Shown here in pieces: positions 24,499 to 31,397 of a stretch of 64,000 bases of DNA. The notes beneath the pieces are model-generated. The model made no database searches. It saw nothing but the letters and a program-made list of their open reading frames with translations, and was not told the DNA's origin. The number at the start of each line of letters is the position of its first letter. The first letter of the stretch is position 1. The DNA is from an uncultured Verrucomicrobiae bacterium (lineage in GTDB: Bacteria; Verrucomicrobiota; Verrucomicrobiia; Limisphaerales; Palsa-1400), in the NCBI GenBank assembly GCA_963702845.1, contig OY969763.1:640001-704000 (forward strand), read 5' to 3'. Position numbers and translations under genes: made by a program.

Positions 24499-25731
24499 AT
24501 GGTTCGTCCATTGCTTGTGACATGTGTTAACCAAAAAAGCTCTGGGCTCGCCTTTTTCTGTTTATTTCTCATTGCGTCGGTTGCCCACGCGGTTGACGCG
24601 CCAAAGCGTTTCAGCCAGGAAAAATTCGTCATCGGCCTCTGGAACCCGCCGGAGCGCGGTGACTTTGACAAAGCATACAAGGAAATTGCCGAAGCAAACT
24701 TCACGCTCGTGGTCAACACGCCCCAACTAAAACTCTGCGAAAAATATGGTCTGCAGGCGCTGATTTCCAATGGCATCAACGAGCCCGTGCCGGATAGTCC
24801 CGCTTGCATCGGCTATTTCGTCGCTGACGAACCGGGCCCAGGTTCGTATCCCGAAATGGCCCGACGTGCTGAAGAAGTCCGCACGAAGAAACCGGGTAAG
24901 TTCGGCTATATCAATTTGCTGCCAAATTATGCGCCGGCGTGGGCACTCGGCGGGACTTACGACGATTACGTAGGCAATTTCATCAAGATCGTCAAACCGG
25001 AGGTGTTGTCGATGGATAACTACCCGACGATGCGCCCGGATGGTGATTCGCGGCCAACGTATCGCTCGAACCTGGAGGTTTTCCGCAAATACGCCACGGA
25101 GGCCAACATCCCGTTTTGGAATTATTTTTACTGCATGCCGTTCAACGAGAAGTTGGATCCGACGGAAGCGCAGATTCGGTGGCAAATCTTTACGTCGATC
25201 GCTTACGGCGCCAAAGGCGTTCTTTACTTTTGTTATTGGACTCCGGGTAAAGGCGCTGCCGGGGGCGGTGAATTTCCCAAAGGCGGCGCGATCATTACGG
25301 CTGAAGGCCTGAAGACGCGGCATTACGATGAAGCGAGGCGGATCAATGCCGAAGTGAAGAATCTCGGGCCGACGTTGATGAAATTGAAAAGCACTGGCGT
25401 TTATCTGGTGACAACAACCGCTGCGACAACCATTCCGGCGTCGAGCGGGTTGACGAATCTCGCGGGGATTAAAGGCGATCCGGTTGGGAACTATCTTGTC
25501 GGCACGTTCACGTCGGGCGATGGTTCGCGCGCTGTTATGATCATGAACGACAACTATAGCTATACCGGATGGTTAAACCTGACGTTCGACATGGACGCGA
25601 AAGACGTGATGGAGGTTTCAAAAACGACCGGGCAACTTGAGCCGGTGGTTGATGACAGTCCGGAGCTAAAAGGGTTGCAGGCCTCGTTTGGTGCAGGCGA
25701 TGGACGGCTGTTCGTGCTTCCACGTCGATAG
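24499..25731 (+). CDS. Secreted putative TIM-barrel glycoside hydrolase; start approximate
   Basis: Signal peptide; GYFVADEP, LSMDNYP, IAYGAKGVLYFCY. Confidence 0.7.
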   Translation: MVRPLLVTCVNQKSSGLAFFCLFLIASVAHAVDAPKRFSQEKFVIGLWNPPERGDFDKAYKEIAEANFTLVVNTPQLKLCEKYGLQALISNGINEPVPDSPACIGYFVADEPGPGSYPEMARRAEEVRTKKPGKFGYINLLPNYAPAWALGGTYDDYVGNFIKIVKPEVLSMDNYPTMRPDGDSRPTYRSNLEVFRKYATEANIPFWNYFYCMPFNEKLDPTEAQIRWQIFTSIAYGAKGVLYFCYWTPGKGAAGGGEFPKGGAIITAEGLKTRHYDEARRINAEVKNLGPTLMKLKSTGVYLVTTTAATTIPASSGLTNLAGIKGDPVGNYLVGTFTSGDGSRAVMIMNDNYSYTGWLNLTFDMDAKDVMEVSKTTGQLEPVVDDSPELKGLQASFGAGDGRLFVLPRR

Positions 25732-25769
25732 CTTGTTCTGACGCTGCGAACATAGAACAGTGATCATTT

Positions 25770-25873
25770 TTAACTCCCGTTAACTCCTGTTAACTCCTGT
25801 TAAGTGCCGTTTGCTGCCGTTTGTGACCGTCGAAGATTTACTTTTGGTTTGAATTCCTTTGAATTCCTTTGAA
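25770..25873. repeat. 10-bp-period tandem repeats
   Basis: taactcccgt/taactcctgt/taactcctgt/taagtgccgt/ttgctgccgt/ttgtgaccgt, then (tttgaattcc) x2.6. Confidence 0.85.
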
Positions 25874-25966
25874 ACGGTCCGGGAGGCAGACAACCGCGTA
25901 CACACCAAGAGAGCTTGCCGAACGCTGATTAAGAGCTTCGGCGGTTGAATTACCCTGTTTCCCTAT

Positions 25967-25999
25967 TTGTCAAAGAACAATTGCCAGCCACTTGCTGGC
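25967..25999 (-). promoter_or_regulatory. boxB-like hairpin plus boxA-like antitermination element
   Basis: GCCAGC-aagtg-GCTGGC, 4 nt, GTTCTTTGACAA. Confidence 0.65.
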
Positions 26000-26008
26000 G
26001 CATGAAGT

Positions 26009-26037
26009 AACTTACGACACTTGATATGATGTGTCAA
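26009..26037 (-). promoter_or_regulatory. Sigma70 promoter with overlapping inverted repeats
   Basis: TTGACA-17 nt-TAAGTT; GACAC-N10-GTGTC overlaps the spacer and -35. Confidence 0.7.
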
Positions 26038-26116
26038 ATCTATGATGATTTGAACGAGGCGCGGTCCGATGGGGTGTTCTCGACAGCACTGCACTTTCCC
26101 CGCTAAAGTCGATGGA

Positions 26117-27535
26117 ATGAAACCCTTGTATTCTCTGGCAGCGGCTTTGCTTTTAGTGTGCAACGGGAGCGCGGAAACGATTCAGTTGGGGGCGCGTCGC
26201 GAGCTGTTTGTTGATCGGTTTTTGATCGGGACGATGACGAATGCGGAGTTGCGCTTGCACGAGCCACGTCGGGATGGGCCGGCGATTCTTTTCGATAAAC
26301 CTTGGGATGGAGGGTTCTCCGCGTATGTGACGGTGTTCAAGGATGGGGATGTTTACCGGATGTATTATCGCGGGTCACCCAAGGCTGGCCACGATGGGAA
26401 TAGTAATGAATCGGTTTGTTATGCGGAGTCGAAAGACGGAATGGCGTGGACGAAACCGGACCTGGAACTCTTCGAGGTCGCAGGCACGAAGCACAACAAC
26501 GTGGTTCTGACGAACGCGCCGTATGCGCATAACTTCAGTCCGTTTCGCGATGAGGCTCCGTCCGCGACTGCCGGCGCTAGATATAAAGCGCTGGCAGGCC
26601 TCCAGAAGGGCGGGTTGCATGCGTTTGCTTCGGCGGATGCCCTTCACTGGAACCCGATGCAAGCTGAGCCGGTATTTACGCGAGGCGCTTTTGACTCGCA
26701 GAATGTGGCGTTCTGGTCGGTAACGGAATCGCAATATGTTTGTTACTTTCGCACCTGGAAGCAGATGACGAAGGATGGGTTTCGGTGGATTTCACGGACG
26801 ACGAGCAAAGATTTTGTGCATTGGACTGAGCCCGAAGAAATGGAATTTGGCGACACGGCGCCGGAGCATCTCTACACGAACGGCACGCATCCGTATTATC
26901 GCGCGCCACATATTTACATCGCGCTGGCGAAGCGGTTTTTTCCAAACAAGGTCGCATTGCCATCGGAACAGGCACGAAAGCTGGTGAACTATCCCGGGTA
27001 TCGCATTGCGTCGAGTGATTCGATTCTCATGACGACGCGCGGTGGCACACATTATGAGCGCGCGTTCATGGACGCATTCATTCGCCCGGGGCCGGATCCG
27101 GAAGATTGGATTTCGCGCGATAACATGCCGGCGTGCGGCGTGGTGCCGGGAGATGCGCGCACGATGTTCATTTATCGGATGTCGCATTATGCGCAGCCTT
27201 CGGCGGAGATGACGCGGTATTCATTGCGAACGGATGGGTTTATTTCGGTGCACGCTGCCTACGCAGGCGGTGAGATGGTGACGAAGCCATTTACGTTTTC
27301 TGGCTCGCAACTTTCACTGAATTTCCAGAGCAGCGCCGCGGGTGGAGTGCGGGTGGAATTGCAGGATAAAACGGGCAAGGTGTTGATGAATTGCGCGGAG
27401 ATGATGGGGGATGAAATCGATCGCGATGTGACATGGTCGCAGGGTGGTGATCTGCGCCGGTTTGCCGGGAAGACGGTTCGGTTGCGATTTATCTTAAAAG
27501 ATGCGGACCTTTATTCACTGCAGTTTCATGACTAG
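26117..27535 (+). CDS. Secreted five-bladed beta-propeller glycosidase-like protein (GH32/43/130-like)
   Basis: RELFVD, YRMYYRG, CYAESKDGMAWTKP, FDSQN, LRTDGF. Confidence 0.75.
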   Translation: MKPLYSLAAALLLVCNGSAETIQLGARRELFVDRFLIGTMTNAELRLHEPRRDGPAILFDKPWDGGFSAYVTVFKDGDVYRMYYRGSPKAGHDGNSNESVCYAESKDGMAWTKPDLELFEVAGTKHNNVVLTNAPYAHNFSPFRDEAPSATAGARYKALAGLQKGGLHAFASADALHWNPMQAEPVFTRGAFDSQNVAFWSVTESQYVCYFRTWKQMTKDGFRWISRTTSKDFVHWTEPEEMEFGDTAPEHLYTNGTHPYYRAPHIYIALAKRFFPNKVALPSEQARKLVNYPGYRIASSDSILMTTRGGTHYERAFMDAFIRPGPDPEDWISRDNMPACGVVPGDARTMFIYRMSHYAQPSAEMTRYSLRTDGFISVHAAYAGGEMVTKPFTFSGSQLSLNFQSSAAGGVRVELQDKTGKVLMNCAEMMGDEIDRDVTWSQGGDLRRFAGKTVRLRFILKDADLYSLQFHD

Positions 27536-30605: not shown

Positions 30606-30667
30606 AACGCGAAGACGCAAAGGTGCAAAGGCGCGGAGAGGAACAGAAGGAAACGAAGGAAACGAAG
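30606..30667 (+). repeat. Purine-rich short repeat block (A then B)
   Basis: aacgcgaagacgcaaaggtgcaaaggcgcggagag + gaacagaaggaaacgaaggaaacgaag. Confidence 0.75.
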
Positions 30668-30749
30668 AGGAGAATCGTTAATCTTCGCTAATTGGCCGTT
30701 GATGAATGGTGTTGACTGGCTATCGGTTGTTGCCGACAACTACGCGGAA

Positions 30750-31262
30750 ATGATTATTCGACGGATACAGGCGAGTGATGCGGCGGGGTATCAGGAGGTT
30801 CGCAAGGCGGCGTTGAAGGATGTTCCGCAGTTTGTGGGGCCGTTGGGAGAACAGGAGGCAAATTGTGCGCTCAACGAACTGGAGACGCGGATTAAGAATG
30901 AGGAGGCGGAAGGGATTTATCGTTTCGGAGTTTTTTTGGATGGACGCTGTGTTGGGGTCGCGGCGATGAGTCGGAAGTTGAATCCGAAGTATGCGCACAA
31001 GGTGTTTTTTTGGGGATTGTATATTTTGCCGGAATTTCGAGGGCGATCGGTCGGTCGCAAGTTGATGGAGGAACGGATTGCGTTTGCCCGGACATTGTCC
31101 GGTGTTCGGTTTGCCACATTGCACGTAACGACGACAAATGAGCCGGCGCGGATTTTGCATCAGAAATTTGGGTTTGTGAGTTGTGGGGTTGAACCGGAGG
31201 CGATGTGTCTGGATGGGAAGTTTTATGATTTTGAGTTGATGCAATTGGATTTGAGTGCGTGA
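30750..31262 (+). CDS. GNAT N-acetyltransferase
   Basis: GLYILPEFRGRSVGRKLM, NEPARILHQKFGF. Confidence 0.9.
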   Translation: MIIRRIQASDAAGYQEVRKAALKDVPQFVGPLGEQEANCALNELETRIKNEEAEGIYRFGVFLDGRCVGVAAMSRKLNPKYAHKVFFWGLYILPEFRGRSVGRKLMEERIAFARTLSGVRFATLHVTTTNEPARILHQKFGFVSCGVEPEAMCLDGKFYDFELMQLDLSA

Positions 31263-31268
31263 GATCGG

Positions 31269-31335
31269 GAACCGAAGCGAACGAAGGAAACGAAGATGTT
31301 TAACGCAAAGACGCGAAGAGCAAAAGGCGCAGGGG
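31269..31335 (+). repeat. Purine-rich short repeat block (B then A)
   Basis: gaaccgaagcgaacgaaggaaacgaag + aacgcaaagacgcgaagagcaaaaggcgcagggg. Confidence 0.75.
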
Positions 31336-31397
31336 AGCAAAGGGAGTTCTCAGCCGTTAATCGCACGCGTGGCTGGCTGAAGCCGAGACTCCATATG

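Follow-up and report, generated by a model that had tools for sequence, protein, structure and literature searches.

The window analysed here, a 64,000-nt stretch of the genome of an uncultured Verrucomicrobiae bacterium from soil (the source genome, in which coordinates prefixed C1 are given), contains a gene-free intergenic tract between two plus-strand genes (25732-26116). An earlier note, made from the sequence alone, had read on its minus strand a promoter, a hairpin, a boxA, a second hairpin and 10-bp repeats, and this raises the question of what a leader of the rRNA antitermination type would be doing ahead of a repeat-rich tract with no rRNA in it. All of these motifs are present in the sequence, which confirms the observation, and the interpretation then offered, namely a Nus-protected non-coding RNA unit, is partly supported by the evidence assembled below.

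An rRNA-type leader ahead of tandem words

Read in sense on the minus strand, the element opens with the -35 hexamer TTGACA (26032..26037), in the TTGACA(C) form common to the promoters of its family, followed after a 17-nt spacer by a weak -10-like TAAGTT (26009..26014) with ACTTCAT directly after it. Because TAAGTT matches TATAAT at only three of six positions, this promoter was missed by a generic promoter scan. A boxB-like GC hairpin (GCCAGC-aagtg-GCTGGC, 25983..25999; 6-bp stem, 5-nt loop) then precedes the boxA TGTTCTTTGACAA (25967..25979), which consists of a T and the 12-mer GTTCTTTGACAA (25978-25967) and lies 29 nt downstream of TTGACA-17-TAAGTT. The composite pattern TTGACA-N16-18-TANNNT-N5-35-GYTCTTTRAMA, inside which the hexamer falls, has one match in the window and none in 100 dinucleotide shuffles. 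Further on, the putatively transcribed spacer holds the second hairpin, GCCGAA-14 nt-TTCGGC by sequence reading (25917..25942), and leads into the repeats, where Tandem Repeats Finder reported TTAACTCCCG x4.2 (25770-25811), TGCCGTTTGC x1.9 (25805-25823) and TTTGAATTCC x2.6 (25848-25873).

In the sense orientation, the array nearest to boxA reads CAAAGGAAUU x2.6 and then CAAACC (25848..25878), and the same array is found at C1:2702976-2703008 and C1:5776759-5776779. It is followed by six in-phase 10-nt units, CGGUCACAAA CGGCAGCAAA CGGCACUUAA CAGGAGUUAA CAGGAGUUAA CGGGAGUUAA (25770..25829; phase read by eye), whose words are shared with C1:2702885-2702903, C1:3854119-3854134 and C1:3388383-3388424, and by an A-rich closing run, UUAAAAAUGAUCAC (25760..25772), which ends the array as in other copies and shares 21/22 bases with C1:3388383-3388404. 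The claim that no open reading frame exceeds 17 codons holds for ATG starts and fails for TTG starts, from which minus-strand frames of 66 aa (25963-26163) and 42 aa (25780-25908) can be read, both without support. Two short inverted repeats, GACAC/GTGTC and CAAATC/GATTTG (5-6 bp), can also be seen and are given no weight here; small inverted repeats lie at 26016-26053. The minus-strand RNA fold is unremarkable (z -1.64), the plus strand folds better (z -3.38), and the first terminator-like site in sense lies ~589 nt past boxA.

The source genome carries a single rrn operon, on the minus strand of C1 (16S at 3834257-3835827, tRNA-Ala, tRNA-Ile, 23S at 3830726-3833597), and the 12-mer of the element proved identical to the boxA of its 16S-23S spacer. 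That rrn copy (C1:3833700-3833689) lies behind a hairpin, 69 nt past tRNA-Ile and 92 nt short of 23S, which is the canonical place of a spacer boxA; the other boxAs of the operon read TGTTCTTTAACA after 16S and GCTCATTGAAA in the leader. In total the 12-mer occurs six times in the 6.03 Mb of the genome, where simple arithmetic would predict about 0.6-0.7 occurrences. The studied copy hence shares with rrn leaders both the organism's own rRNA boxA and a hairpin just upstream of it (6-bp GC hairpin, 4-nt gap). Compared with the boxA consensus of gamma-proteobacteria, GYTCTTTAANA (PMC5725501), the motif has a single deviating position. Genes with a NusB domain and for Rho are present in the source genome; the matches include two to the NusB domain and two to the Rho RNA-binding domain (C1:4238664-4238885 and C1:2028759-2028971, in open frames of 538 and 393 aa).

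Recurrence within and beyond the source genome

The source genome was searched with a strict boxA motif, [CTG]G[TC]TCTTTGA[AC]A, against gene calls from a crude ORF-based caller (82% called coding, 18% intergenic). This yielded 61 boxA-like sites, 48 of them intergenic by these crude calls, compared with 23 and 0 for the reversed motif. Tandem arrays (period 9-11 or 20-21, within 450 nt) lay downstream of 36/48 intergenic sites and upstream of 7/48, while the corresponding counts at random intergenic positions were 205/2000 and 189/2000, in line with the expectation that copies would be followed by 10-mer arrays. A sense promoter, defined as (TTGACA, ≤1 mismatch)-N16-18-TAnnnT in the 120 nt upstream of boxA, was found at 24/48 intergenic sites; the same form occurred downstream of 1/48, in antisense at 2/48, and at 21/2000 random positions. 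The layout of promoter, hairpin and boxA also recurs outside rrn, as had been anticipated, with 18 matches to TTGACA-N45-75-GYTCTTTGAMA and none to its reversed control. The promoter form particular to the family, TTGACA...CTTCAY...TAnnnT, has 33 matches (29 intergenic; reversed control 0), and 21 of these are followed by boxA within 160 nt.

Set side by side, copies in the source genome follow a common grammar of promoter, GC hairpin(s), boxA and blocks of 10-nt words that each end in an A/U-rich run, and subfamilies differ in their words (e.g. AAUGUGCGAC, UAACCGARGU, UCAUAACGSC, GUUUCUCCA and UAGUAGCAAC). In an alignment of 21 leaders, boxA is the sole near-invariant block. Among the paralogues of one subfamily, aligned from nine copies in the source genome and two in the same-genus genome G002, pairing of the leader hairpin is kept through both-sided (compensatory) and G-U changes on the sense strand, the word changes in concert at all positions (GUGCGAC in the source genome vs GUGCCA in G002), and copies differ by exactly one 10-nt unit. 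Canonical terminators show no sense excess, being found at 24/48 sites in sense vs 31/48 in antisense. Measured against the family, the studied copy has a short leader (9 nt from -10 to hairpin), decaying units, and word blocks shared piecemeal with C1:2702885-2703008, 3388383-3388424, 3854119-3854134 and 5776759-5776779. Its promoter and leader look rearranged, because ACTTCAT follows TAAGTT instead of preceding the -10 as in other copies.

Reading the element as a relic of a tRNA or rrn leader was rejected, as none of the 33 family promoters precedes a tRNA and a single fetched element has one downstream. The latter, a boxA-led repeat unit at C1:5698050-5698538, shares its strand with a tRNA-Lys(ctt) gene ~400 nt downstream and is the sole pairing of an element with a tRNA among those fetched. 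Rfam 15 gave no match at gathering thresholds in the window, and none at E up to 1 over a locus covering the studied region (L002) and 11 paralogous loci, apart from one tRNA. No Rfam family, decayed rrn or tRNA leader, or known element end was thus found to explain the element.

Relatives were represented by two fragmentary assemblies of the same genus (G001 and G002, the latter 67% complete), one genome of another genus (G012, 5 contigs) and one of a third genus (G006). By BLAST, one subfamily is restricted to the genus, and the architecture is wider. The pattern TTGACA-N45-75-GYTCTTTGAMA has 0-2 matches in each of 120 other genomes of the order, against 18 in the source genome; with GYTCWTTGAMA in place of its boxA part, family-level matches number 11 in G002, 18 in G012 and 5 in G006, and at the loci fetched, arrays follow boxA within 500 nt in 6/6, 11/13 and 2/2 cases, respectively. 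The boxA-led design is seen in the source genome and in three other genomes, across three genera of the family, with unrelated words. Copies in G012 differ in promoter and hairpin and agree in boxA; a variable middle of ~70-400 nt then leads to two to four copies of UAUUGCACCC at the end, and their boxA, TGTTCTTTGACA, equals the motif 74 nt before the 23S gene of that genome; copies in G006 use GUCAAG words. Leaders and words are unrelated between genera and boxA is their common block. This conservation across otherwise unrelated leaders argues for boxA as the selected element of the family.

The two same-genus assemblies, both fragmentary, revealed no orthologue of the studied copy. In G001, the orthologue of the downstream gene has different neighbours and an intergenic region of ~115 nt, which keeps a promoter-like TCGACA-18-TAAAGT and holds no element, and the orthologue of the upstream gene is followed by other word repeats with no clear boxA; in G002, the contig ends inside the gene at the orthologous locus. 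Elsewhere, a locus of the source genome (C1:3388250-3388850) and its G002 counterpart (L102) carry, upstream of an orthologous gene (MKPLAQC...), the motif AACTTTGTCAAA and then a word array beside the start codon. The words differ between the two (UAAUUUCGACC vs GAUACACCUA), so that position and phase are kept and the word is replaced.

Transcription unit, DNA site or relic

The upstream neighbour, a plus-strand gene ending at 25731 (frame from 24499), encodes a secreted-looking protein of 410-454 aa without Pfam match, and the downstream one, also on the plus strand, a weakly GH32-like protein for which ATG 26117 (signal-peptide-like MKPLYS...) is a more likely start than 26069. The studied copy and the promoter of the 26117 gene diverge from each other, and on its other side the copy is convergent with the 3' end of the upstream gene. 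This promoter, the plus-strand TCGACA-18-TAAAGT (26080..26109), is outside the element and conserved at the same-genus orthologue that lacks it; it ends 7 nt before ATG 26117 with no Shine-Dalgarno sequence (window 26080-26119), and the mRNA of this gene would be nearly leaderless. Across the family, the gene downstream of an intergenic boxA site shares the strand of the site in ~27 cases and has the opposite one in ~20 (hand tally). The 109 intergenic regions with period-10 arrays comprise 55 tandem, 33 divergent and 21 convergent ones, close to the length-weighted background, and no replication-strand bias of element orientation was seen in a hand tally of the orientation list of the source genome. 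Since copies point either way relative to their neighbours, they behave as self-contained elements and not as obligatory 5' leaders, and they look like self-contained non-coding units.

On balance, we lean towards reading the tract as a shortened and not quite typical member of a multi-copy family that is specific to the lineage and made up of self-contained non-coding transcription units, which would produce a Nus-antiterminated word RNA. In such a unit, a sigma70-type promoter would be followed by one or two GC hairpins, then by an rrn-type boxA and finally by phased ~10-nt word blocks, each closed by an A/U-rich run. In rrn antitermination, boxA is established to recruit NusB/NusE, which leads to Rho resistance. 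By analogy with the rRNA operon, RNA polymerase would start near 26002 on the minus strand, the nascent boxA would bind NusB/NusE (S10), and, as a Nus-modified polymerase would resist Rho, the untranslated repeat RNA would be completed. This transcript would be ~260 nt long and possibly extend, in antisense orientation, over the 3' end of the gene at 24499-25731. The repeated words would amount to several identical binding sites in a row, so that factors with sequence-specific binding would most likely find in the RNA a multivalent platform or a decoy. A more ambitious proposal, which we advance tentatively and consider rather improbable, is that of a so far unrecognised class of bacterial word-array RNAs, with dozens of Nus-antiterminated non-coding genes per genome in this verrucomicrobial family. 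Their 10-nt words, in phased tandem copies, would be drawn from a shared, fast-evolving vocabulary and form a genome-wide titration network for a matching set of sequence-specific nucleic-acid-binding proteins (e.g. a terminase-like HTH family), whether through RNA, through DNA or through both.

Two properties of the arrays run counter to parts of this picture: the preference for a 10-bp period matches the helical repeat of DNA and is not explained by an RNA function, and the units vary too much for one protein to bind them all. At score ≥40, tandem arrays of period 10 number 181 in the source genome, those of period 9 number 41 and those of period 11 number 62. Intergenic DNA holds 158/181 of the period-10 arrays, and 125 distinct units were counted among the 181. 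The units alternate G/C-rich and A/T-rich halves, and 146/237 array clusters have no boxA within 450 nt (≤2 mismatches). Words recur in the leader of their own element in 9/35 cases, vs 7.6% of unrelated pairs, which carries little weight because 6/9 belong to one paralogous subfamily. A Rho-binding (rut-like) reading of the 10-nt period was rejected, the words being by eye not C-rich and G-poor. Period-7 tandem repeats are also over-represented in the source genome (107 at score ≥40, 76 intergenic). Within the window, purine-rich 8-9-bp repeats (GAAGGAAAC, GGAAACGAA and ACGCAAAG; 30620-30675 and 31263-31345) bracket a GNAT acetyltransferase gene (30699-31262), and are a different type of intergenic repeat that brackets a single gene. 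Outside the window, a gene for a 123-aa helix-turn-helix protein with weak matches to small-terminase and HTH_23 models occurs in seven copies (C1:812791-813162 and copies at C1:1556891, 877018, 2104811, 1163814, 3260533 and 2551163), each flanked by several 10-11-bp tandem word blocks (e.g. GGTCACGTTT, CGGTAAAGAAA and GGAGGTAATC), and this protein is a candidate reader of the arrays.

The main rival to the transcription-unit reading follows from the dominance of period 10, equal to the helical repeat, and from the alternating halves of the units: the arrays may act as DNA, as phased sites of the iteron, centromere or packaging type that present one helix face to oligomeric binders, with the promoter and boxA only driving or modulating transcription across them. 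The seven terminase-like HTH genes, each adjoining arrays, and the many arrays without boxA fit this possibility, as does a palindrome in G012, TGCAATTGCA, which lies upstream of the -35 and by eye shares a half-site with the downstream word TATTGCACCC. We nonetheless judge it unlikely, as the fixed order of promoter, hairpin, boxA and arrays (36/48 downstream vs 7/48 upstream) fits the needs of a transcript, and a DNA site has no obvious need of an RNA-level antitermination signal. Moreover, no DNA-binding gene adjoins the studied copy, whose neighbours are glycoside-hydrolase-like, and the diversity of words would demand dozens of cognate proteins.

The studied copy could also be an inert relic of an intergenic repeat family that propagates itself or is spread by recombination, its motifs inherited and unused, a case that would resemble modular short-repeat elements known from other bacteria. 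Words and modules are indeed shared in mosaic fashion among many intergenic loci (GTAGCAAC in 42 and GGTAAAGAAAC in 13), module 2 of one subfamily stands alone at 7 further loci, and array-holding intergenic regions are long (median 710 nt vs 129 nt). The weak -10, rearranged leader and decaying units of this copy, and the absence of the element before the same-genus orthologue of the downstream gene, point the same way. Its boxA, hairpin and -35 are, however, all intact, the conservation of boxA as the sole block common to subfamilies and genera with unrelated leaders argues for selection on the family, and an unsystematic look revealed no terminal inverted repeats, target duplications or transposase, which leaves this a doubtful account of the copy. 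Very improbable in our view is that the tract controls the downstream glycoside-hydrolase-like operon on the plus strand, through upstream curved DNA and operators, with the minus-strand motifs coincidental. The tract does lie directly upstream of the plus-strand gene at 26117, DNA curvature can arise from phased A/T tracts, and the small inverted repeats at 26016-26053 might be operators, yet the same-genus orthologue keeps its proximal TCGACA-18-TAAAGT within a ~115-nt intergenic region that has no element, the composite minus-strand pattern is absent from all 100 shuffles, and across the family elements have no fixed orientation relative to neighbouring genes.

Relation to known systems and significance

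Among known systems, rrn leader and spacer antitermination (boxB, boxA, NusB/NusE/NusA/NusG/SuhB) is matched in the order of putative promoter, hairpin and boxA, in the 12-mer of the organism's own rrn boxA and in an untranslated payload. The element differs from it in having no rRNA or tRNA behind the leader, 10-nt tandem arrays as payload, and dozens of copies vs a single rrn operon. Work by Stringer et al. from 2020 reportedly found that boxA in the leaders of CRISPR arrays protects a repetitive non-coding array from Rho. The element likewise places boxA before a repetitive array, but its units are 10 nt long and directly tandem, without spacers or cas context, unlike the 24-48 nt repeats with unique spacers that define CRISPR arrays.

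Small RNAs with repeated motifs can act as protein sponges, as CsrB and RsmZ do for CsrA and CrcZ for Hfq/Crc, and the element resembles them as a putative non-coding RNA with many copies of a short motif. The family has at least 125 different 10-mers, however, so that no single motif or protein fits. Nor are Csr or Crc RNAs known to have a boxA leader or motifs in strict tandem 10-nt phase. The studied copy carries five (A/C/G)GGA(G/A) motifs; GGA motifs are not shared across the family, other copies using unrelated words such as AAUGUGCGAC, UCAUAACGCC and UAGUAGCAAC.

At the DNA level, the STRR sequences of heterocystous cyanobacteria are heptamer units that form several families dispersed in the intergenic DNA of one lineage and have no known function. 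The family described here is similarly lineage-bound, dispersed, intergenic and made of short tandem repeats, and differs in its period of 10 and in the promoter-hairpin-boxA module that stands at the head of roughly one array cluster in three. Direct repeats at about one helical turn make up the arrays of iterons, centromeres and packaging sites (plasmid parC, tubC, small-terminase sites). The element arrays share this spacing, and a small-terminase-like HTH gene lies beside some arrays of the source genome. In contrast to such systems, the studied copy has no cognate gene beside it (its flanks encode the protein without Pfam match and weakly GH32-like proteins), the family occupies about a hundred loci on one chromosome, and an RNA-level signal lies upstream in fixed orientation. 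Lastly, the boxA carried by the suhB 5' UTR (PMC5725501) is likewise found outside rrn and ahead of poorly translated or untranslated RNA, and about half of the element copies, unlike suhB, have no same-strand gene downstream.

A full-text search of a limited literature collection found nothing on boxA-led tandem-repeat units, or on such repeats in Verrucomicrobia. Taken together, the layout is real, recurrent and apparently undescribed, with a leader of a known kind and a payload and multi-copy family that appear new. It also supplies an annotation rule for these elements: promoter, hairpin, boxA, then period-10 arrays. Antitermination by boxA and Nus factors is usually regarded as something that rRNA, a few phages, some CRISPR arrays and a small number of mRNAs make use of, whereas the source genome has one rrn operon and ~48 intergenic boxA sites, most of them heading repetitive non-coding units. 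Should these units prove to be transcribed, Nus factors would have a far wider known use, the question would arise of what reads a 10-nt tandem word, and a poorly studied phylum would harbour a large and fast-evolving repertoire of non-coding RNAs.
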